Origin: a virus
Length of the DNA: 64,000 bases
Reading direction: 5' to 3' (one strand)
Virus record (IMG/VR): IMGVR_UViG_3300031784_000013
Location: 1-64,000 of that record
Shown here: positions 4,336 through 46,321 of the stretch, one piece after another
Layout: each line of letters opens with the position of its first letter
Position numbering within the stretch: position 1 is the first letter of the stretch
Made by a program: the position numbers and the translations under genes
The notes under the pieces: model-generated
Database searches by the model: none
What the model was told of the DNA's origin: nothing
What the model saw: only the letters and a program-made list of their open reading frames with translations

Positions 4336-7300
4336 CTATTTAGGTGTGGTCTTTGGAATGGTGATGTCAAACTCTTTTGCGAACTCTTCATCAAACATTG
4401 CAAAGTAATTAATCAAGGACTTGGACACAGGGAACATCTTTGATAGGTTCTTTATTGGTTGTGCATCTTTCTGCACATCTTCAAAAGACTTGTTTGGATC
4501 TGTAATATCAAATCCTGTCACCTCCATTGTAAAGTGCGTTGCAAATCTCTTTACATCTGTAACTACACCAATTGCTGGAATTAGGTTTCCTTCAAGAATA
4601 TTTTGGAATTCTGTAGGATTGATAAAGAATGTTAATTCACTTACAAACTTATCAACTACACGTTGTCCATATCTGTAGAAGTTCTTTTCAGCTCTGCTAT
4701 CATCATCATCTGGTCCAATCATACCCATAGAGAATGACAACGCTAATAATCCAACAGTGATTGCAAGTTCATTCAATTGATTTCGAAGATTGGTTCTTAT
4801 CAAATCAATAAACTCTTCTCTAGTCATGTTTAATGTTTGACCAGTACGTTTGAAATAATCATCAGAGAACGTCTCAAACATTCTGTCAAGTTCTAGCATT
4901 CCTTTTTCATTAAGCTGAATGATATTTAGAATGTTGTTTGACAACTGAACAGTAGAAGTTCCTATTACATAAGCAAATAATCTCAATCTACCAATGTCAT
5001 ATCTTTCTCCTTCTGTTGTACCATCTTCATTAACAGTTACAGAGAAGTCATCTGAAACTTTCTTCAAATGATCAAAACGTGTAAATGCTAGTCCTGGAAT
5101 CCAGTTCTTGAATATCATTGCAGACTTGAACCAAATGTTCATCTGTGATCTACTAACGTTTTCTGCGTTAATACCACCTGTTGCATTTGTTGATATTCTT
5201 CTAGTAAGTTTAGTTAGTCTCTCAATTTCCTCACGATTACTCAAGTCAAATCCAGGAATAGAAAGTTTTCCATCTTCTATCTTCATGGTAGAACCAACTG
5301 ACTTTTCTTTCTTCAGTTGTTCCACTTCATTCTCAATCTCTTTTTCAATCTCTTTGAATCTTGTTGCAGAAGCTGTTCTTCTTTCGTTTGCATATTTTCT
5401 TTTTACAGCATCACGAATGTTTACAAACTTTCCATTCTCAACCATCACATTATCTAAAAGAGTCATGAATACAGCCTTCTCTGTAAACTGTTCTGGACTT
5501 CTCATAAAGAACATTAAGAAATCACCAAAGTTTCTCTTAGTAAGTTCTGACATACCTGCTTTCTTGAAAGACTCATAGTTAGGATCTTCTCTAAGAGGCA
5601 TGAATGTATTCATCAATTCTACAAATATATCTTGCTCATTCTTGTTTAATTTGTTTCCAAGAATTTTATATTGCTTGCCAAGCACCTCACCTCTAGTAAA
5701 GTAGTTACCAGATTGAGCAGCTAGCTGAACATTAGTGCCAAACCAGTTTACAGCTCCAGATACAAACTCTAGACCAAGAGCCTTTAGTTGGAAATATCTA
5801 TTCATTGTCTCCATTGACTTAACAAGAGACACTGAGCTTGGTTGATCACTAACTGTGAATATTTCTTTGCCACCAAAACGTTTAGCTGTTTTATTAACAG
5901 CTTTCTTCATGTAGTCAACTACACCAGTGGATATGGTAACATCTGTATCATCTAATGGATACTTCTGATCGTAGAGAACCGCTCTCATGAACTGATCATA
6001 AATCTTAGCGTTCTCTTCATTACCCTCTTCTTTTTGAGTGACACCATCTTTTACAACAACATCTCCATTCTTAGATGTTTGTAAGTGGTATTCCTTGAAG
6101 GTTTCAATATCTTTTATGATTTGTACTTGACCTTCCACCTCAGATAGATACTTGTAATTGTTCATGTGACCTATGTACAATACCATGTTTGCAAATAGAT
6201 CCTCACTCACTTCAGAAGTATCAAAGCTTCCATCAGGAAGTCTGGTAAAGTCTGTAGTGTAATACTTTGGTATCGCGTTTTCAACTTCGTTAGTGAGGGC
6301 ATCAATACTTCCATATCCAACATCATCAGCTCTAAGAGATAGTTTGTTACCAAAGTTCATAACGGTTGACAAACTAAAATCCCAAGCCAAACTTTCTGCC
6401 ATGCTCTTTCTTACCCACGGAAGGAATGTTGACACTCCTTGATTATTAAGATATCCTACATCACTAGCCTTATCATTAATGTTGGTGATGAAGTTATATA
6501 GTTCTAGTAAGTCTGGATCTTTCTGAAGCTCTTTGTATTCTTCAGATAGCCATTTGTCTAATGGATGTCGCATTATAATATAGTTGCTCCAACCATTAAA
6601 GTCTGGTCTTGAAATATCCCACTTTTGTCTTTCTTGAAGAATCAAAGAGTCTCTCAGTTCTTCATTGTTAGCATAATCTTTATTTATTTGATTCACTCGC
6701 TTTTGAAGAAGTTCATTAGCTTCTTTAGAATATGCTTCAACATCAATGTTTTCCTTCAACCACTTTTTACTTCTGTTTTCTTCTAGAGCATTGTTTCTTA
6801 CGCCTTCTCTAAACTCAGGACTGAATTTGTAAATCAACTTATTTACAAGACCGCCCTTCTCATCTTTTCTGTAAATCTTTCTAACAAGTGCTCTTAGATC
6901 TCCACCTCTTGCAGCTAGCTTTTCTCTAATCTTCATTAATCCTTCTACTTCAACCTTAGCATCAGCAGATGCTCTCAACTTAGCATTCTCAGTGAGTTTG
7001 TATAGGATTTGTACAGATGCTAAAGGAATCTCACTAACTGTTCTGAAGAACGAACCTAGTCCCTTTACAACAGTTTCTGGATTGAGTAGGCCAGTTACAA
7101 GGTTTCTTAGTCCCATGTATTTGTCTGCAAATTCTCCAGCTATTTTGAAAACTTCTTTTCTATCTGCTCTAATCTTTCTTGATTTTTCCTGGAGATCTTT
7201 CAACAAATCTTTTCTGTCCTCTACCTCTTCTTCAGACATAGCAGATGTATCCATAGTATCACTGTAGATCAAATCTCCAATGCTATCGTCAATTCTACCA

Positions 7301-9246
7301 AATACTTTAGCAATCGCTATAAAGTCTCGTAGTTCTGAAGAGAATTCAGAAAGCTGTTTGTTTGTAAACTCATTAGATCGAGGATCTCCATTTTTGTATG
7401 TTGCGTTGTATTCACTAATAAGGTTCTCACCTTCTTTAATCATTACAAGCACCACATCAATAACAGGTTTGATGTTCATTGTTCCTTGAGCAACACGTAT
7501 TGCTTCTCTGACAATGTTCAAACGTTCTCTCTTGAACTCACGCTCCTCATCAGATGTAGCTTTTCTGTTTGATATTCTATTGAGGATTGCATTCAATTCT
7601 CCAATAAACTTATCAAGACTTTCAAATCCTGTACTTTCTGTTTTTTCTGAAATAGGGATAAGTCTTAAATCTTCAATCTTTGTTGTATCAACAGATCCAA
7701 CATTTATACCTGTTAACGTAGGCTCAGAACCCTGCACTCTTTTATCTGCTGGTTTTATCTGGAACAAGATAGGAACAGCTCTGTTCATCCCCATCTTCTT
7801 AACTCCATAGTTAGCAAGAAGCATGTCACGATATCTTCTGAGCTGTATGTTATAAGCCTCTTGCTTATACCACTGAACATCTCTCTGTCCTTCACCAACA
7901 CTCATAAACTTCCAGTCAAAGATGTTTCCTGTACCATCCTCATCAACAATTAGTAAGTCGATTGTACCAGCTTCTTCTTCACGTGGATCATAAATCTTCA
8001 CTTCAGAGAATACAAGAATATTCTTACCTCCCTTAGAGCGAGATTCAATTAAGTTTGTGTAGTAGTTCTCAAGTTTAGAATAAACTTCAGAATCCACTTT
8101 GTCTAATATATCTGGGCGAGGATCAGGAGTTGCTTTTCTTGTTCCATCCTTGTTGAAGAATCTGTCATGAATCTCTTCAAAGTATCCATGATATTTTACA
8201 CCAAGTGTACGCTTGAATTCATTGAATGCTTTTTCTTCTTTAGAAAATACAGTGTCTCCAAATCTATCTTTGTAATATCTCTTTACACGATCAGTTACAC
8301 GTTTTATAACTCTCTTCCATGTACCATCAGGTTGTTTGTATTCATAGAAGTTACTAGAATCAGAATCACCAAGTGTAAGAACATCTGTCTCAGTATCGAC
8401 AGGTCCCTTTCTTAATGATTCAGTAGTCTCAAGGATTCTTCTTTGTATTTCTTTCTGTGCCTTTGTTGGTTCTGCTAGTTGAAAGAAAACATCGCCATCA
8501 ACAATATCAGATACCTGTCCTTCTACATCACCTTCAATGATTTGTTCAGCAACTTCTTGGAATATTTCTATGTTAGAAGACTTGTACATTCCTCTTAAGA
8601 AGTCTGTAATAGCATTCCACCAACGTCTGATGAGAGATCTATTCTCTTCATTAGCAAGTTCTGGGAAACTACCATCTCCTGTGTTACCATTTATAATAAG
8701 TTCTGCAATCAACTTATCAACAGCTTCCTTCTTAATCTTTCTGATGTCTGGTTTACCGTTAGGAAGTTGATATGCTTTATTATTCTTGTACTGCTCTAGT
8801 GTTTGATTGTAAATCTTGAACCTATCAATCTTTGATATCATCTCAGTGACAAGTGTGGGATTCTTTTGCTCTATAATAGCTGTAGCAACGTGAACCATCT
8901 CTTCTGTAAGAGCTACATCTTCCTTGCCTTCAGCAACAGCAATTACACCTCTTACAAGGTCAGCAACAGCATTTACCCCAGAAACATTTACAGAAGACTT
9001 CTTTGCATATTCAGCGAGTGACTCAATGTTCACTCCCATTTTTTTCAATAGTTCTTTAACCTTCTGTAGGATTTCTGGAGAAGCTGCTGTTGATGGAGCT
9101 TCTTCTATTTGAAACATTACATCTCCATAATCACTTAATGGAACATCTCCTTCATGCTTATCCCATAGATAGAAAGCAACATCCTCTCCTCTAGCTGCAA
9201 CTAGAGATTTCCACTCGTTAAGATTTTTATTAGGACATGTAGCCAT
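4336..9246 (-). CDS. Giant virion cargo/ejection protein (1636 aa): degenerate zincin-like N-domain, PD-(D/E)xK nuclease domain, long helical C-terminal region
   Basis: EVKIY...AGTIDLLIVDEDGTGNIFDWKF...YNIQLRRY is a RecB-like nuclease motif. TEEMVH is a degenerate HExxH. It lies directly downstream of the vRNAP gene, as in crAss-like phages. Confidence 0.8.
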   Translation of the reverse strand: MATCPNKNLNEWKSLVAARGEDVAFYLWDKHEGDVPLSDYGDVMFQIEEAPSTAASPEILQKVKELLKKMGVNIESLAEYAKKSSVNVSGVNAVADLVRGVIAVAEGKEDVALTEEMVHVATAIIEQKNPTLVTEMISKIDRFKIYNQTLEQYKNNKAYQLPNGKPDIRKIKKEAVDKLIAELIINGNTGDGSFPELANEENRSLIRRWWNAITDFLRGMYKSSNIEIFQEVAEQIIEGDVEGQVSDIVDGDVFFQLAEPTKAQKEIQRRILETTESLRKGPVDTETDVLTLGDSDSSNFYEYKQPDGTWKRVIKRVTDRVKRYYKDRFGDTVFSKEEKAFNEFKRTLGVKYHGYFEEIHDRFFNKDGTRKATPDPRPDILDKVDSEVYSKLENYYTNLIESRSKGGKNILVFSEVKIYDPREEEAGTIDLLIVDEDGTGNIFDWKFMSVGEGQRDVQWYKQEAYNIQLRRYRDMLLANYGVKKMGMNRAVPILFQIKPADKRVQGSEPTLTGINVGSVDTTKIEDLRLIPISEKTESTGFESLDKFIGELNAILNRISNRKATSDEEREFKRERLNIVREAIRVAQGTMNIKPVIDVVLVMIKEGENLISEYNATYKNGDPRSNEFTNKQLSEFSSELRDFIAIAKVFGRIDDSIGDLIYSDTMDTSAMSEEEVEDRKDLLKDLQEKSRKIRADRKEVFKIAGEFADKYMGLRNLVTGLLNPETVVKGLGSFFRTVSEIPLASVQILYKLTENAKLRASADAKVEVEGLMKIREKLAARGGDLRALVRKIYRKDEKGGLVNKLIYKFSPEFREGVRNNALEENRSKKWLKENIDVEAYSKEANELLQKRVNQINKDYANNEELRDSLILQERQKWDISRPDFNGWSNYIIMRHPLDKWLSEEYKELQKDPDLLELYNFITNINDKASDVGYLNNQGVSTFLPWVRKSMAESLAWDFSLSTVMNFGNKLSLRADDVGYGSIDALTNEVENAIPKYYTTDFTRLPDGSFDTSEVSEDLFANMVLYIGHMNNYKYLSEVEGQVQIIKDIETFKEYHLQTSKNGDVVVKDGVTQKEEGNEENAKIYDQFMRAVLYDQKYPLDDTDVTISTGVVDYMKKAVNKTAKRFGGKEIFTVSDQPSSVSLVKSMETMNRYFQLKALGLEFVSGAVNWFGTNVQLAAQSGNYFTRGEVLGKQYKILGNKLNKNEQDIFVELMNTFMPLREDPNYESFKKAGMSELTKRNFGDFLMFFMRSPEQFTEKAVFMTLLDNVMVENGKFVNIRDAVKRKYANERRTASATRFKEIEKEIENEVEQLKKEKSVGSTMKIEDGKLSIPGFDLSNREEIERLTKLTRRISTNATGGINAENVSRSQMNIWFKSAMIFKNWIPGLAFTRFDHLKKVSDDFSVTVNEDGTTEGERYDIGRLRLFAYVIGTSTVQLSNNILNIIQLNEKGMLELDRMFETFSDDYFKRTGQTLNMTREEFIDLIRTNLRNQLNELAITVGLLALSFSMGMIGPDDDDSRAEKNFYRYGQRVVDKFVSELTFFINPTEFQNILEGNLIPAIGVVTDVKRFATHFTMEVTGFDITDPNKSFEDVQKDAQPIKNLSKMFPVSKSLINYFAMFDEEFAKEFDITIPKTTPK

Positions 9247-12200
9247 TAGCAGATTGATTTCAAAATTTTACCTATTTCCTCTGGAGTGTATCCAATTACT
9301 TCCAGCATTCTTGAATTGATTTTTGAATATGGATAAGTTTTTCCATTTTTCAATTTCATTTCTCCTTCTTTAGAAGCTTGTGTTTTTGCCTTTGCAGCTG
9401 TCGCATCTTTACCAGTGAAGAGATTTACAATTACAGAATCTTCTCTTGGAGCTGATGTTTTAACTCTTTCACCATTCACTACACTGTTACTATTCACAAC
9501 CTTAATGAATCCATTATCAATCAATGAAGCCTTTTCAACATCATAGAATTCTTGAGCACGTTCTCTAGCACCCCATGCATTCACAGCCTGATAGATGTAG
9601 TACTCTTTGTTATTAGATAAATGAACAAATGCTTGACCATCAACATCCTTCACTCTTCTGAAAAATCCACGCTTGATGTAAGAGAAGTCACCCCTCTTTC
9701 TCATCTCAGCTTTCTTTTCTTTTGTAATATTGTCTTCCCACGAATATACAAAGAAATCACGATCAGAATTTCTTCCTAGAACGCTTCTTGACATTAATGG
9801 TGGGATATCACCATTTTTAATGGCATTCTTGATCTTTGGTTTAAAATATTCCATTGCTGGATTGTATTTTGGTTTCTTTGTTGGATGATTAAGATTAATC
9901 CATCTAGCTTTCTCATAAGGAACAATCTCGTCATTAGCCCAATTGTTTCTCTCAAATACATTCAAGGTAGCAAATGTTTCTAGATTAGGAAGTCCTTCAA
10001 GTTTTTGAATTGTATCGTTGTAGATGTTTTTAAAGTCTTCATGAGGAAGTAGGGATGTAAACGAAAGTCTATTTACAGAAAGTCCAGACTGGTACAATGC
10101 CAACATCTCAAACTTCTTGTACATGAACAATTGGTTAGTACCTTCCAGATATTCTTTTAACTCTCTGAAGCTGTATATAATACTGTTCTGATCATATATC
10201 TTATTAGTAGCTCCTTTTATCTTAATGTTGTTAGCACTATTAGGAGAAGCTTCTGGAGCAAGTTGTGGTACAATGGTATTGACGACATGGTTATTATACA
10301 TTGGATGCTTAGGATCTGCTTTGATTTCCCTAACCATTTTTACAATGTCATTAGCATATCCACCTTCAGATATCATTGTGTTAAACACTTGGTTTCTAAA
10401 CATTGTATTTGTTTGCACAGCATAGTCAAATAAGTCTGCTACAGCTCTCTGTGCCACCTTTACAAAGTCACGATCAGAAAGATTTACATAAGGCTTAATA
10501 ACTTTCTCAATTACATTTCTCACCTTGCTTCTATCAGATGCTAAGATTTCAGCAACAGCATCTCTTGTTTCATTTAATGTTTCAGCAGTTGTACCAATAA
10601 ATGAGTTGTCCAATATCTCATCAACAGAGCTAATGATAGTTTGTCTAGCCTTTACTAGCTGCTCATGTTTCTTATATAGAAGGTACGGATCGTTAAAATT
10701 AGATGTATCATAGTTAGTTCCCTGTGTAACAAGGAACATGTGCTCTGCCATCTTAGCATACTTCAAGAACTCACCAAGAATAAATTGTTGATCAGTTTTT
10801 TGATCTGCTGAAAGCTCAGATGCTTTTTTTCCAACCATGTCTTTTAGAGACTTAGTGTTTGGAATCTTATTTCTAGAAGATGCATCTTTTCCTGATTCGT
10901 AATCTTGACTTACAAGATCTACGAAGTCATCTATGAACAACCAAGAGTATCCTGCATTCTCAACAGTTCTTAGATAATCACGAACGATTGGTTGATTCAT
11001 GAAGTATGTAATGGTGTCAATAGGCACGCCTATCTTAGCTAGGAACAACCACGTAGATGCTACGTTTGGTGTAGCACCAAGCTGCATGATCCAAGGACCG
11101 TTAGAGATATCTACATACCCATCAATAAATTGACCAATGATATCTGAGATGAATTGTCCATTTGGATACTTCTCACTTCTCTCAGCGTTCTTAATCATTG
11201 ACATGGTAGCCTTACCATCAAACTGATTGAATTCTTGGAACTTCACCTTAGCATCTCCAAGCCATTTTCTATCTACAGGAGAGACATTATCCAACCTAGC
11301 AGGATCTACAAAAGATGCAAATCTCTGCATCAATGAGTGGTTTGTCTGGTTAACAGCTGCAATACCAATTGCATACTTACCAGTTACAAACGCATGACGT
11401 AGTGATGACATGAAGTTTCTATCCAACATGTTACCTACGTTTTTATAATCATATGACTGACCAACAGTTTTCTTAGCAATGATATCTGCAAGATCTTTCA
11501 ATTGCTGTGCTGAGTTAGGAGTCATCAACTTATCATAGTTCTCGTCACTCTTTATCAAGTTCTCAGAAGATTCAATGTAAGCGTTCTCAAGAGATGACTT
11601 GTACAATCTATTTGCATGTTCTTCGATAAACAAGTCATCCAAATCTTTTGTAGTGAGTTCATTTATATTCTTGTTGAGTTCTTCAATTCTATTAATGAAA
11701 ACTTGTTCAATTAATTGGACAGGGAGTTTACCATCAACAAGATCGTTAGCAAACCATTGTCTGAATATAGGAATCCATTTCTTTGCAAGTTTATCTGAAC
11801 TTAGACCTAAAGCAATATCTCCAAATATTCTTTGAGCCTGACCTTGCTTAAGAACCTTTTCTTCTTTTATTGCAATTTTTTCTTCAGTTATTTCTCTTGA
11901 TAGAGCCTTGAACTTGTCAATAGCTTGTTGACCATATCCTTCGAATGGAACAAGTTTGATATTACCTTTTGCATCTTTATAAACGTTCTTCAAATACATT
12001 GAAAGTTTATCGATGTCAAAGTCAGATCCAACTTTGGCTACAAGTGCAGAAGGAATAACTACAGAGTCACGGAATTCTTTTGGTAAGAACTTAGCAATTT
12101 TGATTGCATCAATTGAGTTTTGGTTCTGCGTAGGAATACGGAATGCAACACCAAATAGAGCAGCTATTTGTTTCTTACCTTCAGGATCATTGTTAAAATA

Positions 12201-15200
12201 GTCCATTAATTCCTCATCAGAAAGAGGGCTATCAAACCATCTACCAATCATCACCTCAGCAACACGTTCTCCATCCTTTTCATAGAAATTCAATGTGTCA
12301 GAAACAAATCCTTTCTTACCATTGATTTCTTGCACTCCAATCTTGTTTGATTCCAATAGTGTAGAAGGAATTTGAACCTTCATACCACCAGATATCTTTG
12401 GAGAAACAACTTCACTATCAACAATAGAATAAAGAATGTTTCTCACTTGCTGATATGCAGGAGTTGCTTCAAGAATAGTCTCACCCTTAAGGAATGAGTT
12501 AAGTGATTCAATGACATTATCATTCACCTCTCTCTTAAGCATTTCATCTCTTAGAGTGGTGGCTGCAACAGAGAAGTCAGTTATCTTATATCCGTCATCA
12601 ACTCTCTCAATACCCAATCTTCTTAGCAAGCTTTCATAACCAAACTTGGTCATCTCTTGCAATAATTCTTTGTTGTTCTTTATTTCTTTGTAGAGCTTAG
12701 ATTGTTCTTTTCCTGCTTCATCAAGAGCATTCCAAGCCTTATATCTGTCGTTGAAGTTTTTTTCATTAGGCATAAAGTCAACAGGAACGCCAGCAGCCAT
12801 AAAGTCCATAGTCAAAAGCTTTGTCATTTGAGAACCTCTAGTAACAAGAGCTTTATCCTTAGAAGGAACTTCTGCTTGGATAGCCATGATTTTGAAAGGA
12901 ATGTTTATAACATTTCTATCATCTCCTTCAACCAAGTAAGGAGCATCATTAAATGATCCATCAGCATTATATGTAGAGTGTGGATTTCTTGCTCCAACTT
13001 TTCTACCACTATTAAATACAATGTAGTCAATGTCCTCTCTCTGCATCTTATCATAAAGCTTCATTGCATTAGATGTTGGATTAATCTTATGCATTATTCT
13101 AAATGAAAGAGGATAGAGTGCAAATTTATCAAGAACCACTTCATTATATCCTTGATCATTATCTGTAGTTCCAGCAACAATTGGTTTTACAGGAGTGTAT
13201 GCACTCTGTACACCAGGATTGTTTTTCTCAAACTCGTTAATAGTTTCTTGGTCTGCTCCAGACTTAACAAGTTCCTCATATGCAACATCATGTCTATATT
13301 GAAGTTCATCATTATCTGTCCACTGACCTGCTCTAAATCTCAAGTTTCTATTAGCCTTCATAGAAATGATGCCTGAACCATCTGTTTCTTTAAATTCATC
13401 GTAGTCTTGTCCAGGAACATCTACAACACCTATTACATCAGCATGTGTAACTGTTCTGAAATAGTTTCTATTTAAGTCTGTATATCCAGCATCTCCTTTT
13501 TCAAATCCTGCATTTAATACATTATGCATTGCTGCATTTATGTTAAATCCAACAGTTAAACTGTCTGGGTCAGACATAATAGCTTGTCTTGGAGAACTAA
13601 AGCTTTTGATACGCTTAAGTTCATCCTTATATTGATATGGATCAGAATACATGAGTTTGTGCAACTCGATGTTAGCAATCATGTAGTTTACAGTGAGTGC
13701 TCTCAAGTTGTTATTCAACGTCTGCTCGTTCATTGATTTACTCAATGTGTACATCTCACCTTCCTCAGAAGTTTTTACATTTCTTAATGAATATGATGCA
13801 CCATCGTATTCAAGAATGTTGTAGGTAGATAGCGTAGATCTGAATGAATCTGTTCTAGACTCAACATACTTCTTAACAGCAGTTTCAATTCTTCCCGCAA
13901 ACTTTTTGTACACAGCTTCAGCATCAGTTTCTTTAAATGCTATGATTTCATCGTTCAATTCTTTTCCAAGAATATCATAGAAGAATCTAAGATTGTTTTT
14001 CTCAGATGCTCTAGATGGATCAACAAATCTGTCTGGAGACTTAGCAAGTTCGTATTCAGACTTGAAATATTCTTTAAATATCTCCATCACCTTTCCGTAA
14101 CCCATGCTCATGTTTTTAGATGATACATGGTTGCCCATCTTAACCATCCATTCAATAGAAGCATCTCCAGGAACAAGGTTCAAGTAGAATCCCTCTAGGT
14201 TTAGATTGATTTCTTGTACAATGCGTTGTACATAGTTTAGTTTAGCAGAAGGTTTTTGTTTTCCAGTGGTGTCATCCTTAGTTCCTCCAACATACCCTAC
14301 TGTAAGTAAATCAAAGTTTGGATTATCTTCTTTAACTTTTCTACCTCCTTTTGAAAACAGCTTGTTCAATATCACAGAACCTTTTGCAAATGGGTCCATA
14401 ACAAGATACTTGTAATGACTTTCTTTTACAGAGTTATCATTAAGATTTTCAGTCTTTGCTATAAAGTCTTGAAGATCACTCAATGGGTTTACACCAATGC
14501 GTGACTGGGTACGTTCATTAGAAATGTTGAAATACGTAATGTCAATCTCTGGATTAGAGGCTTTAACTTTTAACAAAGCAAGTTTTGTAAGTCTTCCTTG
14601 AACACTAATGGTCTTCTTGGAAAGAGTCATCAACACTTTTTTCTGAACAAAGCTATCTCTTATACCTTTTACAATCTCTCTAAATTTAATCTTATCATCA
14701 GGCTCAAGTTTTTTAAAATCTTCCTTAGTAAACTCAACACCAATATCACCTAAGAATTTCAACATTGCATTATCATTATCAGCAATGTTTGAAGAGTCAA
14801 ATTTTAATTTATTAATAGAATCTTTTGCAACATAGGCTAGTTGCTCTTTACTATATTCAAGATATCCTTTACCATCTCTAGCAGACATGATAATACCATT
14901 CTCAAAGTCATTAGCAATCTGTGAAGATGCTTTTGCCAAGTTTGCATCACCTACAACAACATCACCATTTTCAAGAATGAACACATTCTTAACTTCAGGA
15001 TTTTGTTTCTTGAATGTGCTAAAGAAAGAAGAAAGTAATTGCAGACTGTGTGGAGTGGTTAGTTTTTTAAATTCAAAATTACCTTCATCCCACTCTTTTT
15101 TAGCAATTCTTTTATAAAGTCTAGCATAGTTAGAATCTTCTTCAGCAAGTTTTTTGAGATTTTCCATCATCTCATTTACATCTCTAGATGCATATAACTT

Positions 15201-18200
15201 ATTCAACACTGTTACAAATGTCTGACCAAGTGGTAACAATTCGTTTCCACCAACAGATGTAACTACTGTTTCATAACTACCATCAGGATTTTTTCTTCCT
15301 GTTGTTCTAGGTAGGGTGGCAAGAAGAAGTTTGATAGCTGGATTCGCTTTTCTAAATGCATCAATCTTTGTAGCATCTTGATTAATCTCTCTAGTCTTAT
15401 CTTCATCATTAAGTATGATCTGATCATTCTCATCAAACTCAATTTGATACTGCTTCATGTACTCTTCGTACTTATTGAAGATATCATCCCACTCATTTAT
15501 AACCTTGTCACGTGTTTGTATTAAAGACTTATTGAGTGCTACAAACTCAGCATTTGATATTTTACCTTCTTTCCAATTATCTTTATTTGCAGAAATTAAT
15601 TCTGTAATAATTCCAGACTTTACAAAAACACCATCATCATCTATCTCTCCTATAATTTCTTCAAATAGAATATCACTCAACTCTGATCTATTGAGATTTG
15701 TAACATTGAACAAACTTTGATCAGTGGTGCCAAGAAGAGACAAAGTCTTATAAGCCATTTGTTGAATTATATCATGCTGCTCCTTGTATGGAACTGTGAT
15801 GGCTCTAAGCTCATCTTCCTCTGTAGCAAATGCATCTTCTATATCAACTATTTGGGAAGGAACATCTTGCAGAACTCCCATAGAAGGAATAGACTTAGCG
15901 TAATAACCATTACCTATTTTCTTGAATAGCTCTTCTGTATTGATGTTTGCATCCTTACCTGTAAAGAACTTCTTGATGATGTTTACAATATCAGAGAATA
16001 ATTTAACTATAAAAGGTCTTCCATCTTTTGGTTTTGCAGGAACCTTCTTGAATAATACATACTCTCTAAACTCTTCAGCAAGTTGTTCTTTGATTTGCTG
16101 AGGGGTGGCTTCTGAATACTTTACTGTCTCACCTGTAGGTCTATCAATAAAGCTTCCAGTTCTAGACTTGAATTCATTAATAACAGATTGTTGTTCTGCT
16201 GGATCAGCAAACATCTTCCATACAGCTTCGAACACCTCATGATAGAATGTTCCCACCTCTGCATTTTCATACACATAGATAGCACCATTCTTTAACATAC
16301 CCCAAGCCTGTACACCATTAGTGGCTTGGATAATATTCTTTAGTCTATACACTGGAACACCAGGAATAGCTTTCTTCCAGAAGGCTTCTATTTCATTCCA
16401 GTCTTCAGTCATGTTAGACTTAGCCTGGTTCTCAACTGCCTTTCTAAACTCTGCTCTATTACTTCTCTTAGTAGACTTAGTTGTTCTATCAATTTCTTCA
16501 GATAGTTTATTAGCCTCATCTTCAATATTATCTGCTGCTGGTTGTTTTTCAAACAAGCGAGATTTAGTTTTCTCAGCCTTAGATGGTTCTTTAGATTCTT
16601 CAGTAGCAGGTGCAGCAGGAGTGAGTGGTTTTTTTCCAAATAGTTTTGCTCTAGTCTCTGCTGCTCTTGAACTTTTTGGAGATTGTTCTGATTCAATTGC
16701 TCTTTTAACAATTTTCAAAACCATTTCCTTTATAGCAACCTTTGGATCTTCACCTCTAGATTCAAAATCTTTCATTACAGATTCCAAATCATTAGACTTG
16801 AATATTTTTATATTCTCTAATGTTGGATTTTCAGAAGGTGCTGCAAACACAATAACTTTTCCTGTCTTTTTAGATCTTAATTCATTTGGTGTTTCGCCAT
16901 CAAGAATAAAGTCAACTTCAGCCTCAGCTTCAGCAGGGGCAGCAGTTGGAGCAGGTGTAAGTTTAGTTTCCTTCTTGCTTTCAGGAATAATATAATCATC
17001 CACTGTATCAGTGGTGTAGAAGTAGATTCCAGATCTGTTTACATCATTTGGTCCCTCTAGTGGACGCATGTATGTAGAAAGAGGAAGTTGTTCTCCTGAT
17101 CTTTTCTTTCCATCAGGAGTGGTTGTAGAAAGTAAGTAGGACTGATAGGTAGGCCACATTACAGATTCAATAGTTCCATCTTCAGAGATGTTAGTAATCT
17201 GTTCGTATTCTTGTAGCTCTCTAGCAAACTTACCATTCACATTGTGATACATTCCTGATAACACAGCAATGATACTGTCCTTGTTTTGTAAAAGACCTGA
17301 TGGTGTAAATGGGAAAGACTCACCTCTTCCAGACATGAATAGTTTACCATCCTTGAAGAATACACTGCTATATCCTGGAGGTTTTAAACCAGCCTCATTG
17401 GATGGTATGCCCCAATACACAACAGACTTCAAGTAAGATATTAGTCTCTTACTTTGATCATCGTTGACACCTTTTGTTTTATCAAATGCATTCTTTGAGA
17501 ATTGTAGAATAGCATTGAAAATAGTTTCAGCTTCTTTCTGAGTGTGTTGTCTATTGTTCAATGGAACAAGTCCATTACCCATGTCAAGAAACACTCTACC
17601 TGGGGAAGACTTAGTTACACTTATGCCTCTAATGATAGATTCATCACTTGTTGCAACAGTGATTATTGGAGAGTTGTCAATATCATACTCTGTGACAAGT
17701 CCAGCTTCTTCAACACCTGTTCTGGTGTCATATAACTTCTTACCTTCTGTATCTTTATTAACTTCTGCTATACCAAATGATACATCAATAGAATGAACCT
17801 CAGAAAGGTCTTCTACTTTTAGAATTCTACTTCTCCATTCAGCATATTGTTTCGTAACTTCGCTTCTTACGTTCTCAGGAACATTGTTAGCAAACATTGA
17901 TTTATCACCATATTCTCCAGACCATTTAAGAGTCTCTAGTGGGAATACTTGGTAGATAGAGTTGTTAAGAGGATCTTGAAGTTGTTCTTCTGTAAGAGTT
18001 TCACCATTCTCACCAACCAATACAGGCTCACCAGTTGACATATCAACCATCACCATAGCAATGATTGTATTTGGATCAACTGTTTCATTAACACCGTTCT
18101 CGTCAGTTCTTAAGAAATCCATCAATCCAGGAATCAATTGATCCTGGTTCTTTGAAGTGATGTAGACACCTTTAATCTTTTTCTTTTTGTCATTATCAAA

Positions 18201-21200
18201 TGATTGGAAGTTCATTCCAAATCTTTGAGCACGTTTCTGATGAGGCTTTGCTCTATTAGTTGCAAGAGTGGCTCTAGGAAGAATGGCTACAGGCTTCTTA
18301 GCATCCACTTCAAACTCTCTGTCAAATACAGGAGCTGTTGGATTATCATTATCAGCTGTACCAAGAATTTGCTTTTTCAATGCATCACTCTTCGCTAACT
18401 TTTCTTGTTCACGAATATTAGCCTGCTGTTCTTTGTAGGCTTTCTTCATTTTTGCAATAAGCTCTTCTTTGAATCTTAGCTCATTCGCATCTGCTACAAG
18501 AGTTTCTTTTAGAGATTTTACTTCATCTAAAACTTTATTCAACTTCTCTTCATTCGCAGCAATTTCCATATCCTCAGTCTCAGCGATAAAGCTGTCAAGC
18601 TCACGCAAGTCTGAAACATAGTTTGGCTTCACCTTTAAGAAGTTAGGGTTTAACTTTAAAAATTCGTTAAACTCTGCTCCTAGGATTCTTGGAACCTTTG
18701 GATAGTTTATCTCAAACTGATCAATTAAGCTTCTTAAGAAGTCTATAGTTGAATCAATAGCAGCTTCAATCTGATCAGCAAGTCTTGTTAATGAATTGAT
18801 TTGTTTACCAGTTTCCTCTATTGATTCTTTTAGAAGTTCTGTTTCAAACTCCAACTGATCAATAATAGATTTCTCATTACCAGAAAGTTCTGTAATATTC
18901 TGAAGAGCATCTTGCAAATAAGCAAGCATCGCTTCACCCTCTTCTCTCTGAGCTTCTAGATCAGAAACTTCTTGTAACAAATCTTCTTTAGCTCTTGACA
19001 AACGCATAGCTGCATCAAGAGCCTTTCTTACAGAAGACTTTAGTCTTACAGTCTTTTTAACTCTAGCATCTACACCACCCTTCTCAATAACTTTATTAAG
19101 CTTCTCGAGTTCTTCTTCAATGGTTAAGATGTCAGCTTTCTTCTGCTTAATTGTTTTCTCTAGTTCAGCTTGCTTCTCAACAACTTCATTATTAAAGTCG
19201 TTGATGAGTTGTGAATACATTTCAGAAGGAGGTTGAGTTGCAGCAGCCTCTTTTGATTTTTGAATATCAGCTTGCTCTTCAGTAGTAAGTTTTCTACCAA
19301 GAGAGAACATTGCTTTGTCAAAACCTGGCTTAGCCTCAAAAGACTTTAGATCAATTGGCATTGATTTTGTAACTCTTTTACCCTTCTTACTCTTAGTAAC
19401 ATAAGTGAACATGAGTTTATTAGTGTCACTATCAAACTCAAGTCTACCTTTTTTAATACCACCTTTATCTTTACCCATGTTCCATTCTACAATGGTGTTA
19501 GCATTCTTCATGTAGAATGCTGCTTCAGGGTTGTTAGCAATGTTAGAAACTTTTCCAAGTCTATAATCTTGCAAAACTTCAGGGTTGATATCTCTTTCTC
19601 CTTTGTTATCTCTTATTCGAATTGTACCATCTGCATTTTGACCAACAATTGTCAGTTTTGGAAAACGATAAATTTCTTTTCCATCCGCATCGTATTCAAC
19701 AACTCTTCCAAGAAAGTATTCTTCTCCCACCTCATAAGTCTTCTCACCAGCTTTGGTTTTGATTCTAATTCTTTGACCAAGCTTCTCTTCAGGAATTACA
19801 GTGTCAGGCTTCTTCTCTGCTGGAGTGAAGTTAGATGGGTTTTCTTTTATTTCTTTATACTCATCGATAAACTTCTTTCTCTTCATACCCATCTCAACAA
19901 GTTCGAATAGGTCTTGAGTCAGTTCATCTTCATTCACTGATCCCTTTGATGTAATCTCCGTAAGTGCTTTTTCAACAGCCTCATTCGTAGGTGTGCCATT
20001 TAACAATACATCATTAAACAAATCAGCGGTGTTTACACCAGCAGTTATAAGCTTATTGTTTAGACTAGGTATTCTAATGTCGTAATCAAATATCTTAGAA
20101 GCAGCATAAGTAAGTTTATCAATAACAGGATCACTATATACACGTTCACCTTTCTCATCAACAATACCCTTATACTTTAAACTAATATCTTGATAAGCTT
20201 TATCAATATATTTTGATTGGTTTTCAATATTATTTAATCTATTTAAGAAGGATTCTTTTGTATCAGTTTCGTATGCATATCCTTCTTGTTGCAATTGCAA
20301 GAATCCCTCTGGTGTAGTAGTTAATGCTCTAAGTTCTTCGAGTTCTTGATTTATAAATTCTGTAGAAGTATATTTTGCACGATTCAACACTGTACCAAAA
20401 AGAAAATCAAACTCAAGATCTTTTGCTGCTGATACATCACCCTCTGCAATCTTTTGAGCTCTCTCTTGTTGGATTTTTTCAGAAGCGTTTATAACTTTTG
20501 CTGAATCTTTAAGCTTGTCTTTAATTAGAGAATTATTGAATATGCCAATAGCCTCATCTCTAATTGTTTTTTGTTGTCCCCCATCTCCAAACAACCCTCT
20601 TTCTTTGATAGCACCAGTCATACCAAATGTTGGTATACCAGATGTCATTATAGCACCAGATACACCACCAATAAAAAAGTTAAGAAGTCCCTCATCACTA
20701 GTGAATGCTTCTTTTGCACCATTGAAGAACAAGTCATCTAAAATAGAAGCTTCACCTGTCTCATCAAGTTTTGAGAAATAGTTTTCAGTTCCCACTTGAG
20801 CAGCATACTGAGATGCTTCTTCAAGAGCTTCAGTAGTATTAAACAGTAATCCTCCAAAGCTTCTTGCTTTGTATAAGCTTCTTGCAATTCCTTTTTGAGG
20901 AATAGATGAAACATACTTACCCTCTCTGAAAGCAATATTATTAACAATATTCTTTTCACCTTTGAAAGTAGAAGAAAATATCTTAGGAAGCTGTACAAAG
21001 TTAGAAGCTGAGAGCAAACCAATGTTTAATCCGTACACTGTCTTACCAGCACTCTCAGCAAGATTATTAATATTGGCTAGATCATCTCCTTGTGGAGTGT
21101 ATCCTTTTTCAGCAATATATTTATCAATCAAAGATTGTCTGAACTCCTGAGAAGCATTTAGGGCTTCTATACCAGCTTCACCAGCAGCACCAAATGTTGC

Positions 21201-21992
21201 TACGATTCCTCTCTCAGCACCCATCAAAGCTCTACCAGCAGCCATTCTACTGGATGCTCCTAGTTTAGTTAGTGCATTATTTATTGTAGAAAGTCTTTGT
21301 ATTTGTGGAAGAGCATTAGCAGAACCAACAGCAGTGTCAGCAGCAGCAGCCATGTTTCTTCCTTGGGCTACTAATCTACTTGTTAAACCAATAGCTCTGA
21401 AAGCACCAGACCAAGCAAAACCACTGGCAAGTGCACCTGCCGCAAAGCCAAGATTTTTGATGATGTTGTCAGCTAAGAAGTTAGCTGTTAAAAGATTTTC
21501 TGGTTCCCACCAATCACCATTTTGCTCTCTTTGTGTTTTGTAATTAGCAAAAGTTGTTTCTAAATATTCGTTATTGAAATCATTTAATTGTCTGGTAAGA
21601 TCGTTGTCAAACACTGAAGAAAACTTTCCAGTTTTTGCCCAATCATAAATACCATAAAGCAAACCAGCTGTACCATTTACAAATGTAGTTGCACCAATGC
21701 CAACAAACTTAGCAACACCATTGCCAAGTTTCTCAGCGGTTCCCTGGTATGTAGCATATAGATCTTCATTATCCATTCCTGGATAAACTTTATCATATCT
21801 ACCAGAAGAATCAAGTCCAGCAGCTGGGGTGTATGTAAATGTACTATTGCCCTGCCCTAGCTTTGGAGCACCTTGATTCATTAATGTATTGAATGTATCA
21901 ATAATCGATCTTTGATTCTCAGAAGGTGCTTGTGCTGAAGGGTTTTGATTTGGTGAACTATTTTGTCCCAATACTGCTAATTCTTCTTCCAT
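9246..21992 (-). CDS. Virion-packaged crAss-type RNA polymerase (4248 aa) fused to N-terminal membrane-helix, coiled-coil and zincin-like regions
   Basis: Catalytic GSDFDIDKL (~12010-12023) preceded by AFRIPTQ, plus TDGSGII and SGRKVG motifs. DFDID is the crAss-like vRNAP signature. Gly/Ala-rich hydrophobic helices near the N-terminus; HEVFE...EQLAEEF zincin-like segment. Confidence 0.93.
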   Translation of the reverse strand: MEEELAVLGQNSSPNQNPSAQAPSENQRSIIDTFNTLMNQGAPKLGQGNSTFTYTPAAGLDSSGRYDKVYPGMDNEDLYATYQGTAEKLGNGVAKFVGIGATTFVNGTAGLLYGIYDWAKTGKFSSVFDNDLTRQLNDFNNEYLETTFANYKTQREQNGDWWEPENLLTANFLADNIIKNLGFAAGALASGFAWSGAFRAIGLTSRLVAQGRNMAAAADTAVGSANALPQIQRLSTINNALTKLGASSRMAAGRALMGAERGIVATFGAAGEAGIEALNASQEFRQSLIDKYIAEKGYTPQGDDLANINNLAESAGKTVYGLNIGLLSASNFVQLPKIFSSTFKGEKNIVNNIAFREGKYVSSIPQKGIARSLYKARSFGGLLFNTTEALEEASQYAAQVGTENYFSKLDETGEASILDDLFFNGAKEAFTSDEGLLNFFIGGVSGAIMTSGIPTFGMTGAIKERGLFGDGGQQKTIRDEAIGIFNNSLIKDKLKDSAKVINASEKIQQERAQKIAEGDVSAAKDLEFDFLFGTVLNRAKYTSTEFINQELEELRALTTTPEGFLQLQQEGYAYETDTKESFLNRLNNIENQSKYIDKAYQDISLKYKGIVDEKGERVYSDPVIDKLTYAASKIFDYDIRIPSLNNKLITAGVNTADLFNDVLLNGTPTNEAVEKALTEITSKGSVNEDELTQDLFELVEMGMKRKKFIDEYKEIKENPSNFTPAEKKPDTVIPEEKLGQRIRIKTKAGEKTYEVGEEYFLGRVVEYDADGKEIYRFPKLTIVGQNADGTIRIRDNKGERDINPEVLQDYRLGKVSNIANNPEAAFYMKNANTIVEWNMGKDKGGIKKGRLEFDSDTNKLMFTYVTKSKKGKRVTKSMPIDLKSFEAKPGFDKAMFSLGRKLTTEEQADIQKSKEAAATQPPSEMYSQLINDFNNEVVEKQAELEKTIKQKKADILTIEEELEKLNKVIEKGGVDARVKKTVRLKSSVRKALDAAMRLSRAKEDLLQEVSDLEAQREEGEAMLAYLQDALQNITELSGNEKSIIDQLEFETELLKESIEETGKQINSLTRLADQIEAAIDSTIDFLRSLIDQFEINYPKVPRILGAEFNEFLKLNPNFLKVKPNYVSDLRELDSFIAETEDMEIAANEEKLNKVLDEVKSLKETLVADANELRFKEELIAKMKKAYKEQQANIREQEKLAKSDALKKQILGTADNDNPTAPVFDREFEVDAKKPVAILPRATLATNRAKPHQKRAQRFGMNFQSFDNDKKKKIKGVYITSKNQDQLIPGLMDFLRTDENGVNETVDPNTIIAMVMVDMSTGEPVLVGENGETLTEEQLQDPLNNSIYQVFPLETLKWSGEYGDKSMFANNVPENVRSEVTKQYAEWRSRILKVEDLSEVHSIDVSFGIAEVNKDTEGKKLYDTRTGVEEAGLVTEYDIDNSPIITVATSDESIIRGISVTKSSPGRVFLDMGNGLVPLNNRQHTQKEAETIFNAILQFSKNAFDKTKGVNDDQSKRLISYLKSVVYWGIPSNEAGLKPPGYSSVFFKDGKLFMSGRGESFPFTPSGLLQNKDSIIAVLSGMYHNVNGKFARELQEYEQITNISEDGTIESVMWPTYQSYLLSTTTPDGKKRSGEQLPLSTYMRPLEGPNDVNRSGIYFYTTDTVDDYIIPESKKETKLTPAPTAAPAEAEAEVDFILDGETPNELRSKKTGKVIVFAAPSENPTLENIKIFKSNDLESVMKDFESRGEDPKVAIKEMVLKIVKRAIESEQSPKSSRAAETRAKLFGKKPLTPAAPATEESKEPSKAEKTKSRLFEKQPAADNIEDEANKLSEEIDRTTKSTKRSNRAEFRKAVENQAKSNMTEDWNEIEAFWKKAIPGVPVYRLKNIIQATNGVQAWGMLKNGAIYVYENAEVGTFYHEVFEAVWKMFADPAEQQSVINEFKSRTGSFIDRPTGETVKYSEATPQQIKEQLAEEFREYVLFKKVPAKPKDGRPFIVKLFSDIVNIIKKFFTGKDANINTEELFKKIGNGYYAKSIPSMGVLQDVPSQIVDIEDAFATEEDELRAITVPYKEQHDIIQQMAYKTLSLLGTTDQSLFNVTNLNRSELSDILFEEIIGEIDDDGVFVKSGIITELISANKDNWKEGKISNAEFVALNKSLIQTRDKVINEWDDIFNKYEEYMKQYQIEFDENDQIILNDEDKTREINQDATKIDAFRKANPAIKLLLATLPRTTGRKNPDGSYETVVTSVGGNELLPLGQTFVTVLNKLYASRDVNEMMENLKKLAEEDSNYARLYKRIAKKEWDEGNFEFKKLTTPHSLQLLSSFFSTFKKQNPEVKNVFILENGDVVVGDANLAKASSQIANDFENGIIMSARDGKGYLEYSKEQLAYVAKDSINKLKFDSSNIADNDNAMLKFLGDIGVEFTKEDFKKLEPDDKIKFREIVKGIRDSFVQKKVLMTLSKKTISVQGRLTKLALLKVKASNPEIDITYFNISNERTQSRIGVNPLSDLQDFIAKTENLNDNSVKESHYKYLVMDPFAKGSVILNKLFSKGGRKVKEDNPNFDLLTVGYVGGTKDDTTGKQKPSAKLNYVQRIVQEINLNLEGFYLNLVPGDASIEWMVKMGNHVSSKNMSMGYGKVMEIFKEYFKSEYELAKSPDRFVDPSRASEKNNLRFFYDILGKELNDEIIAFKETDAEAVYKKFAGRIETAVKKYVESRTDSFRSTLSTYNILEYDGASYSLRNVKTSEEGEMYTLSKSMNEQTLNNNLRALTVNYMIANIELHKLMYSDPYQYKDELKRIKSFSSPRQAIMSDPDSLTVGFNINAAMHNVLNAGFEKGDAGYTDLNRNYFRTVTHADVIGVVDVPGQDYDEFKETDGSGIISMKANRNLRFRAGQWTDNDELQYRHDVAYEELVKSGADQETINEFEKNNPGVQSAYTPVKPIVAGTTDNDQGYNEVVLDKFALYPLSFRIMHKINPTSNAMKLYDKMQREDIDYIVFNSGRKVGARNPHSTYNADGSFNDAPYLVEGDDRNVINIPFKIMAIQAEVPSKDKALVTRGSQMTKLLTMDFMAAGVPVDFMPNEKNFNDRYKAWNALDEAGKEQSKLYKEIKNNKELLQEMTKFGYESLLRRLGIERVDDGYKITDFSVAATTLRDEMLKREVNDNVIESLNSFLKGETILEATPAYQQVRNILYSIVDSEVVSPKISGGMKVQIPSTLLESNKIGVQEINGKKGFVSDTLNFYEKDGERVAEVMIGRWFDSPLSDEELMDYFNNDPEGKKQIAALFGVAFRIPTQNQNSIDAIKIAKFLPKEFRDSVVIPSALVAKVGSDFDIDKLSMYLKNVYKDAKGNIKLVPFEGYGQQAIDKFKALSREITEEKIAIKEEKVLKQGQAQRIFGDIALGLSSDKLAKKWIPIFRQWFANDLVDGKLPVQLIEQVFINRIEELNKNINELTTKDLDDLFIEEHANRLYKSSLENAYIESSENLIKSDENYDKLMTPNSAQQLKDLADIIAKKTVGQSYDYKNVGNMLDRNFMSSLRHAFVTGKYAIGIAAVNQTNHSLMQRFASFVDPARLDNVSPVDRKWLGDAKVKFQEFNQFDGKATMSMIKNAERSEKYPNGQFISDIIGQFIDGYVDISNGPWIMQLGATPNVASTWLFLAKIGVPIDTITYFMNQPIVRDYLRTVENAGYSWLFIDDFVDLVSQDYESGKDASSRNKIPNTKSLKDMVGKKASELSADQKTDQQFILGEFLKYAKMAEHMFLVTQGTNYDTSNFNDPYLLYKKHEQLVKARQTIISSVDEILDNSFIGTTAETLNETRDAVAEILASDRSKVRNVIEKVIKPYVNLSDRDFVKVAQRAVADLFDYAVQTNTMFRNQVFNTMISEGGYANDIVKMVREIKADPKHPMYNNHVVNTIVPQLAPEASPNSANNIKIKGATNKIYDQNSIIYSFRELKEYLEGTNQLFMYKKFEMLALYQSGLSVNRLSFTSLLPHEDFKNIYNDTIQKLEGLPNLETFATLNVFERNNWANDEIVPYEKARWINLNHPTKKPKYNPAMEYFKPKIKNAIKNGDIPPLMSRSVLGRNSDRDFFVYSWEDNITKEKKAEMRKRGDFSYIKRGFFRRVKDVDGQAFVHLSNNKEYYIYQAVNAWGARERAQEFYDVEKASLIDNGFIKVVNSNSVVNGERVKTSAPREDSVIVNLFTGKDATAAKAKTQASKEGEMKLKNGKTYPYSKINSRMLEVIGYTPEEIGKILKSIC

Positions 21993-24697: not shown

Positions 24698-24712
24698 TGT
24701 ATATTATTTTAT

Positions 24713-24720
24713 CAAATTTA
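24713..24720 (-). promoter_or_regulatory. Candidate Bacteroidota -7 promoter element (TAAATTTG) upstream of the 901-aa/vRNAP genes
   Basis: Exact TAnnTTTG match in the 28-bp gap, 15 nt before the ATG. Confidence 0.45.
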
Positions 24721-24725
24721 ACAAA

Positions 24726-29450: not shown

Positions 29451-29451
29451 A

Positions 29452-35138: not shown

Positions 35139-35594
35139 TTATGGGCATCCAATATTTAATGTTTGCAGAATAGAACCATTGTATGTACCTGGAGCAATGC
35201 AACTTGTTATACTAGCTCCTGTGTATGTGTAATACTTAACTGGTGAACCAGGAAGAACATACTGCTGACCTATACCAAGAGTTGGTACAGTCAATGTAAA
35301 TGCGTTGTCCTCTGGATCACATCCTGCAAGTTGATAATATGTAGGACATGTACTAGTGGTGGTTGTAGTTGTTGGTAAAACAAGTATTATATCTATATAA
35401 TTGCTACATAAACCAGTTGACTTTACACGAACAATTGTAGTTCCTACAGGGGCTAAGGTTGTTGTGTAGCCAGCTAGAAGAGCTGCTTTAGACACACCTG
35501 TTACAAAAGCTGATGTGTAACCATCTACATCAGAGAAGAGGTTAAATGGGCCAGTATCTGTCCCAGCTGTGGTTAATGTTATTGTTATAGTCAT
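35139..35594 (-). CDS. Small virion decoration protein (151 aa): docking module A, Thr linker and Cys-containing beta domain
   Basis: N-terminal ~70 aa closely match the N-terminus of the BspA-like protein; PTTTTTTSTC linker. Confidence 0.7.
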   Translation of the reverse strand: MTITITLTTAGTDTGPFNLFSDVDGYTSAFVTGVSKAALLAGYTTTLAPVGTTIVRVKSTGLCSNYIDIILVLPTTTTTTSTCPTYYQLAGCDPEDNAFTLTVPTLGIGQQYVLPGSPVKYYTYTGASITSCIAPGTYNGSILQTLNIGCP

Positions 35595-46317: not shown

Positions 46318-46321
46318 GATA

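Follow-up and report, generated by a model that had tools for sequence, protein, structure and literature searches.

Crassviruses are the most abundant phages of the human gut, and the way in which they package and deliver megadaltons of protein, an RNA polymerase among it, is an open question. Their virion RNA polymerases are defined, in a preprint (10.1101/2020.03.07.982082), by the motif DFDxD, and the proteins of the cargo module concerned have been found in virions of cultured relatives, namely by mass spectrometry in crAss001 (PMC10172136) and, according to the proteomics annotation, in phi14:2. In the preprint on the phi14:2 polymerase, fused forms of these proteins are assumed to be 'likely cleaved' by a protease. 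For the crAss001 cargo proteins gp45, gp46, gp47, gp49 and gp50, passage through the tail requires partial unfolding (PMC10172136), and the structure paper leaves the order of their ejection to 'interactions with one another' (PMC10172136); inter-subunit disulfides have been described in the same particle for the gp57 dimer, the tail hub-ring contact and R1-R2 (PMC10172136). Here, I analyse the cargo module in the first 64 kb (64,000 nucleotides; hereafter, the window) of the 111,142-bp IMG/VR virus record IMGVR_UViG_3300031784_000013, estimated to be 96% complete, and show that two giant proteins encoded by adjacent genes, A and B, hold one cysteine (Cys) each, at the two ends that face each other across the gene junction.

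A structure with such a pair is available for the cyanopodophage A4 (Anabaena phage A-4L), in whose virion pre-ejectosome a disulfide between Cys1715 of gp27 and Cys5 of gp26 has been seen by cryo-electron microscopy (cryo-EM; PNAS 2025, PMC12002296). A cleft of gp26 receives the C-terminal helix of gp27, and the authors regard the bond as further stabilising the pentameric ring and the pre-ejectosome (PMC12002296). It is one bond in one phage; the text of that paper does not contain the word 'cysteine' and states no rule for split or fused proteins (PMC12002296). A check of the A-4L sequences shows that the sole Cys of gp27 (1717 amino acids, aa) lies two residues from the C-terminus, and that of gp26 (1114 aa) at residue 5. 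As to the scarcity of cysteine in ejected proteins at large, its exclusion in N4-like phages has been attributed to their passage through the oxidising periplasm (PMC11445570).

A cysteine pair at the A/B junction

All large genes discussed lie on the minus strand of the window. The junction and its surroundings comprise the following features:

9246..21992, minus strand: gene A, a giant cargo protein of 4248 aa (478.6 kDa) that ends in ...ILKSIC-stop
4336..9246, minus strand: gene B, an RNA-polymerase-associated cargo protein of 1636 aa (187.5 kDa) that begins with MATCPN
9249..9251, minus strand: TGC codon of Cys4248 of A, followed by TAA; a junction-facing thiol
9235..9237, minus strand: TGT codon of Cys4 of B; a junction-facing thiol
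9244..9248, minus strand: TAATG stop/start overlap of A and B, the ATG of B (9244-9246) sharing one base with the TAA of A
21992..34269, minus strand: three cargo genes upstream of A, of 901, 1574 and 1605 aa, with 0, 0 and 2 Cys and no terminal Cys

The sole Cys of protein A is its C-terminal residue, Cys4248 (1/4248), and the sole Cys of protein B is residue 4 (1/1636). Read along the minus strand, the junction sequence is ATC TGC TAA TG GCT ACA TGT, with the two Cys codons within 17 nt of each other around TAATG, an overlap that would couple the translation of A and B. The head-to-tail pair had been pointed out in an earlier, sequence-only reading of the window, and the codons confirm it. 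A recount likewise reproduces the Cys tally given there for the five cargo proteins, i.e. one in A, one in B, none in the 901- and 1574-aa proteins and two in the 1605-aa protein, or 4 in 9964 aa (0.04%), as against 0.86% over the 23 large open reading frames (ORFs) of the window; the neighbouring tail proteins contain 2-4% Cys. If the single Cys of each protein were placed at random, the probability that both would come to lie so near the facing ends (within 9 and 8 residues) would be about 1e-5. A blastn search of 2.5 kb around the junction against a phage collection returned no match.

Identity of A and B

Searches of Pfam, PHROGs and PDB sequences with A and B gave nothing useful. Protein A contains, however, a single DxDxD sequence:

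12009..12023, minus strand: DFDID catalytic motif of a two-barrel RNA polymerase, A residues 3324-3328, the only DxDxD of A

The region that flanks this motif retrieves by tblastn the RNA-polymerase proteins of 127 crAss-like records, including g066, the catalytic subunit of phi14:2. In blastp comparisons, residues 66-459 and 1890-2014 of A match crAss001 gp47 (3e-24), residues 2748-3672 match phi14:2 g066 (2.5e-22), and crAss001 gp50 also matches A (3e-10), while B matches crAss001 gp49 (3.6e-8) and cr108_1 gp052 (3e-18). Because of the motif and of the tblastn and blastp matches, A is identified by similarity as the first two module members fused into one chain, a gp47-like N-terminal half and a two-barrel virion RNA polymerase like gp50 and phi14:2 g066, and B as the third member, like crAss001 gp49 and phi14:2 g065. 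The earlier assignment of A to the virion RNA polymerases is thus supported by DFDID at residue 3324 and by the similarity to g066. Judged from the same matches, the order of the module is gp47-like, gp50-like polymerase, gp49-like, and the window conforms to it.

A structural block of crass type (terminase, portal, capsid, tail, cargo) ends with the module, portal, terminase and capsid lying upstream; PHROG matches at 51-59 kb of the window identify the portal (1.6e-108), the terminase (6e-85) and the major head protein (2e-30). The terminase is closest to that of the cyanophage Lbo-JY46 (40% identity), and next to those of crAss-like phages.

Conservation of the terminal cysteines

Among the 120 A homologs listed, which are 40-97% identical over the C-terminal 499 aa, every one carries a Cys at an offset of 0-5 residues from the C-terminus; it is the only Cys in 72 of them. 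The B family presents the mirror image: a Cys stands at residue 3 or 4 in 116 of the 120 homologs listed, and 109 of the 120 contain a single Cys over their full length. Of the four exceptions, at least three seem to have had their start codon assigned wrongly. When the B family is represented by 50%-identity clusters, the first Cys falls at residues 3-8 in 102 of 109 full-length representatives (28-82% identity), and the Cys4 column is one of only eight invariant columns in the alignment of B (alignment A1). By comparison, ends that face no junction carry a Cys in 1/120 cases (N-terminus of the first protein) and 0/120 (C-terminus of the last).

In both families the Cys columns stand amid hypervariable, indel-rich sequence (alignments A1 and A2), and the N-terminal Cys of the B family remains at residues 3-5 even where 1350-1850 aa are inserted behind it. 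Since its position survives insertions of up to 1850 aa and its flanks are hypervariable, the Cys tracks the terminus rather than a homologous position. A split variant from the clade of the window (P0176, aligning to A 1782-4166) has acquired a Cys near its N-terminus, at residue 6.

Split and fused forms in relatives

The Cys pair is present at 34/34 distinct A/B junctions from 49 related IMG/VR loci, at 0-4 residues from the C-terminus and at positions 3-4 from the N-terminus, although the overlap or gap between the two genes ranges from -1 to +16 nt. It is likewise present at all 17 true split junctions of the module in 14 reference genomes (phi14:2, crAss001, IAS virus, Rudgehvirus, crAssphage LMMB, cr108_1, cr4_1, cr131_1, cr125_1, cr118_1, cr50_1, cr52_1, Fpv1 and Lbo-JY46), which span Steigviridae, Intestiviridae, Suoliviridae, Fipvunavirus and the cyanophage Lbo-JY46. 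Where the module is split twice, the pair occurs twice: in phi14:2 at both g067/g066 and g066/g065; in crAss001 at gp47/gp50 and gp50/gp49, though gp47 is encoded on the opposite strand; and in IAS virus at two junctions, partner genes lying on opposite strands there as well. The giant proteins of the gut Suoliviridae hold 3-27 internal Cys, so that what is asserted for them is the terminal pair alone and not Cys-free seams.

Fusions behave in the opposite way. Rudgehvirus and crAssphage LMMB are split, with the pair, at 47/50 and fused at 50/49; the 50/49 seam zone of Rudgehvirus has no Cys, nor has the fused 47/50 seam of the window itself. Two natural complete fusions of A and B, P0335 (5544 aa) and an ORF of locus L034 (at least 4929 aa), contain zero Cys. 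Their seams lead from the last conserved domain of A to the first conserved segment of B within ~35-45 residues and lack the A linker, the A mini-domain and the N-terminal head of B described below, which in the split form take up ~115 residues. Breaks that are no subunit boundaries are without a pair; these are a frameshift in locus L058 and the interruptions that split the DFDxD motif of the polymerase gene in cr108_1 and in cr131_1. The sequence-only reading had predicted terminal and initial Cys at split junctions and their loss in fusions; this held in every testable case.

The two interruptions inside DFDxD look like the insertion of an intron or a homing endonuclease. That of cr108_1 (L018) lies at 28409-28700 (...AGSD / LYDIDK...), and that of cr131_1 (L025) at 19116-19911 (...RFND / MFDIDH...), with a 242-aa ORF in the gap. 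Two further arrangements were observed. In locus L003 (7563-8282, plus strand), and likewise in L005, a 239-aa ORF occupies the very junction of the A and B homologs (...ILKSIC stop, followed by MEIC...); it has its own Cys at residue 4 and 4 Cys in total, no Pfam or PHROG match, and the A/B pair is kept on either side of it. In P0381 (3056 aa), a gp47-like N-terminal half is joined directly to a B-like protein, the polymerase segment is absent, and there is no Cys.

Anatomy of the two ends

Three segments flank the junction:

9249..9368, minus strand: C-terminal mini-domain of A of ~40 aa (EGEMKLKNGKTY...EEIGKILKSIC), with two strands and two helices predicted, the last helix ending at the Cys
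9369..9497, minus strand: hypervariable linker of A of ~43 aa, between the last conserved domain of A, which ends in ...NGFIKV, and the mini-domain; rich in indels, of low predicted confidence, unconserved (alignment A2)
9127..9246, minus strand: N-terminal head of B (MATCPNKNLNEWKSLVAARGEDVAFYLWDK...), a coil with Cys4, two short predicted helices and a disordered variable linker

In an AlphaFold2 (AF2) model of the last 300 aa of A, the predicted local distance difference test score (pLDDT) averages 47 and reaches 80-89 solely in the last ~40 residues; the model of the N-terminal end of B averages 50, with the two short helices at modest confidence. The mini-domain of A and the head of B are candidate docking partners. 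Lys and Arg make up 27% of the residues beside the terminal Cys of A, versus a background of 13%. Classes of tails and heads co-occur, ...ILKSIC with MATCPNKN, ...KSCQ with MPCKIEIK and ...DPFTC with MACNVQLN, a co-occurrence that might simply reflect their linkage on the DNA.

Between the two Cys lie 3 residues in 22/34 junctions, and 2-12 in cultured gut phages. A strict compensation between the offset of the Cys in A and its position in B was considered; it is suggestive only, being confounded by subclade structure. The idea that removal of the first Met exposes the Cys near the N-terminus was rejected as a general rule, residue 2 being usually Ala, Ser or Pro, and also Ile, Lys, Gln, Leu or Glu.

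Cysteines elsewhere in the cargo and the tail

Outside the termini, Cys accounts for 0.012% of 511,511 residues in the A family and for 0.008% of 226,363 in the B family. A single internal column is recurrent, and it collects 45 of the 61 non-terminal Cys of the A homologs:

12258..12260, minus strand: Ala3245 of A, 79 residues before DFDID; Cys in 45/120 homologs

The 901-, 1574- and 1605-aa proteins are part of the block from which Cys is excluded, and their homologs in related contigs mostly have zero Cys. The two Cys of the window's 1605-aa protein are C1115 and C1120, in ...GDMNCINGVCYMV... (window 30925-30942). The sequence-only reading had called this site CHAP-like, a label to which Pfam lends no support, since neither a CHAP nor an NlpC/P60 match is found there. 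Close Cys pairs occur also in crAss001 gp45 (C390/C398) and phi14:2 g069 (C369/C378), homology of these to the 1605-aa protein not being established.

Beyond B, at 1-4185 of the window (minus strand), a fibre-like protein is rich in Cys, with 50 in the part that lies in the window; in its homologs (L009, L010, L012, L016, L035, L037 and L060) Cys is kept at residues 5, 10 and 18 (6, 11 and 19 in L016) where listed. As the C-terminus of B has no Cys, B and the fibre-like protein do not form the same kind of pair. Several Cys-rich tail proteins of the window end in or near Cys (35139-35594, ...NIGCP; 35632-41262, ...SECCVGPS; 45811-46353, ...AATSC). Such ends are not unexpected by chance at 2-4% Cys; the tails of crAss001 are, however, cross-linked by disulfides.

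Accessory domains are inserted in several A and B homologs (P0027, P0034, P0047, P0146, P0171 and P0390-P0393), namely PF18760, PF08719, PF00583 and PF12705, along with the helicase domains PF13538, PF13604 and PF13245. The giant cargo proteins appear to serve as carriers of accessory domains.

A proposed disulfide between A and B, and its alternatives

Taken as a whole, the evidence makes it fairly probable that A and B are joined end to end, within the cargo module, by an inter-chain disulfide. The sequence-only reading had offered such a bond or, failing that, a shared metal site. The bond gains from the comparison of split and fused forms and from the cryo-EM precedent of A4; the metal site finds no support, because each chain offers a single thiol and its surroundings hold no conserved His or Cys. 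The sequence of events might be as follows. The end modules, i.e. the mini-domain of A on its variable linker and the coil and two helices of B, would dock on each other; under the oxidising conditions met after the particle exits the reducing cytoplasm, Cys4248 of A and Cys4 of B would form the disulfide. The bond would replace the missing peptide bond and turn the products of two genes into a continuous chain of ~5900 residues (~666 kDa), such as fused relatives make from one gene. Packaged and ejected as an almost linear thread (with stubs of 0-4 residues in this clade), the module would stay together at a ratio of 1:1; reductants of the host cytoplasm would then cut the bond. Ordered threading through the tail and release by cytoplasmic reduction are purely inferential at present. 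Broader still is the proposal that, across crAss-like phages, split giant cargo is rejoined by docking modules and a terminal disulfide into a thread of >650 kDa, with injection in gene order, cutting by reductants of the host cytoplasm alone, hence redox-timed release and activation of the polymerase, and fusion and link being functionally interchangeable; so extended, the idea is tentative and on balance doubtful.

Several observations weigh against a disulfide between A and B. Such a bond has yet to be seen in a crass-like phage, the cargo of crAss001 being unresolved in its structure (PMC10172136), and A and B have no sequence homology to A4 gp27 and gp26. The cytoplasm in which particles are assembled is reducing, and the habitats of gut crassviruses are anoxic. 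Neither an Erv1/ALR sulfhydryl oxidase nor a thioredoxin was found in the 111-kb genome, a weak negative given that the control search for the oxidase family was empty as well; because the genome encodes neither, oxidation would be spontaneous. The AF2 models of both ends are low in overall confidence (mean pLDDT 47 and 50). P0224, apparently a split polymerase, has no N-terminal Cys. Lastly, a lone terminal Cys without an obvious neighbouring partner occurs in three of the smaller cargo proteins:

L027, 4676-7261: crAssphage LMMB protein 89, single Cys at the penultimate residue; facing end of the adjacent gene without Cys
L023, 33334-35358: Lbo-JY46 protein 385, single Cys at residue 5; facing end of the adjacent gene without Cys
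L021, 3053-5326: Rudgehvirus gene49, single Cys 10 from the end; facing end of the adjacent gene without Cys

The same bond might be nothing but a static lock that holds the packaged cargo core around portal and DNA, with no role in threading or in redox-timed release. The authors of the A4 study read their bond in this sense, as stabilising a pentameric ring (PMC12002296), and for the last residues of A a helix is predicted, with the Cys at its end; nor are short stubs obviously forced by the dimensions of the conduit, the tail constrictions of crAss001 being <50 Å and the exposed end of its portal barrel ~25 Å (PMC10172136). A lock could, however, sit anywhere on the surface, and the extreme-terminal position of the two Cys, together with their replacement by a peptide bond in fusions, fits continuity of the chain better, which makes a mere lock unlikely. 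Pairing at junctions would fit equally well any other thiol-thiol contact, and the cytoplasm is reducing; the two thiols might hence bridge a metal or form another thiol adduct and hold together an active polymerase complex in the cytoplasm. Against such chemistry stand the single Cys per terminus and the hypervariable flanks devoid of conserved His, Cys, Asp or Glu ligands. The sole structure of such a pair, that of A4, shows a disulfide, and recombinant phi14:2 gp66 was purified and assayed alone in dithiothreitol, in transcription reactions that held gp66 only (preprint). A contact of this kind is therefore held to be quite improbable.

Each terminal Cys could instead act on its own, in a homodimer, linked to one of the Cys-rich proteins of the shell such as portal, ring or muzzle, or as the site of an acyl or other modification, so that its match with the neighbouring gene would be a coincidence, as the partnerless Cys of LMMB 89 and Lbo-JY46 385 and the disulfide-rich shells of crassviruses would allow. 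The probability of this is slim, given that Cys is restricted to the ends that face a junction (1/120 and 0/120 at outward ends) and that the partners co-occur at every split and vanish together in fusions. Even less can be said for chance, or for a nucleotide-level signal at the stop/start overlap, which the two Cys codons within 17 nt around TAATG in the window might bring to mind. Chance is ruled out as the origin of the pair because it is conserved across hundreds of diverged homologs within hypervariable end segments. As to a signal, the Cys persists while junction sequences and spacings vary (-1 to +16 nt), where the 239-aa ORF is inserted in one group, and where the partner genes lie on opposite strands, as in crAss001 and IAS virus. 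Both are effectively refuted by the conservation among homologs and by the variety of junction sequence, spacing and strand, and their probability is practically nil.

In the literature found, the preprint on the phi14:2 polymerase included, these cysteines are not described for Crassvirales; for a link of this kind there is one structural precedent, in A4. A pair at every split and none at any fusion, a rule that extends across the order, amounts to a concrete chemical hypothesis that can be tested in cultured phages. If true, the disulfide between A and B would extend the single observation in A4 to a general principle for ejected proteins, and would explain why exactly these Cys are tolerated amid the exclusion of all others. 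For annotation, the Cys pair provides a simple marker: in giant genes of phages, it tells whether a break is a genuine boundary between subunits or the result of an intron or frameshift.

Comparison with known systems

In a phmmer comparison, A4 gp25-29 gave no match at E<=0.01 to the A and B homologs and the reference cargo proteins, and profile searches of the PDB with alignments A1 and A2 returned nothing. Because there is no sequence homology to gp27 and gp26, the relation of A and B to the A4 pair is, by analogy, one of 'works like' and not of 'is a member of'. The likeness consists in adjacent genes with a single terminal Cys on each facing end and bodies otherwise free of Cys. The differences are that A4 is T7-like (Saffermanviridae) and without a virion RNA polymerase, and that its bond has been seen, whereas that between A and B is a proposal.

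The near absence of Cys from giant ejection and polymerase proteins is shared with Schitoviridae (N4 gp50, DEV gp71-73) and with gp15 and gp16 of T7, which have 0 Cys. These systems differ in having no conserved terminal Cys pairs, and the polymerase of N4, which consists of one chain only, belongs to another family of polymerases. T7 gp14 (L066, 1229-1819) has one Cys, at residue 2 (MCW...).

Two analogies, neither of which implies homology, may be drawn from outside the phages. In split polyketide synthases, short docking domains at the C- and N-termini set the order of the subunits, and in two-chain translocated toxins a single interchain disulfide holds the chains together during translocation and is reduced in the cytosol.

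Within Crassvirales, the disulfides in the shell of crAss001 show that such bonds form and persist in crassvirus particles, but they link Cys-rich shell proteins and not Cys-free cargo. The closest counterparts of the window's module are g067-g066-g065 of phi14:2 and gp47-gp50-gp49 of crAss001, homologous proteins in the same order, with a central DFDxD polymerase and Cys-tipped junctions; in the window, unlike in these two phages, the first two proteins are fused, which leaves one junction and one Cys pair.

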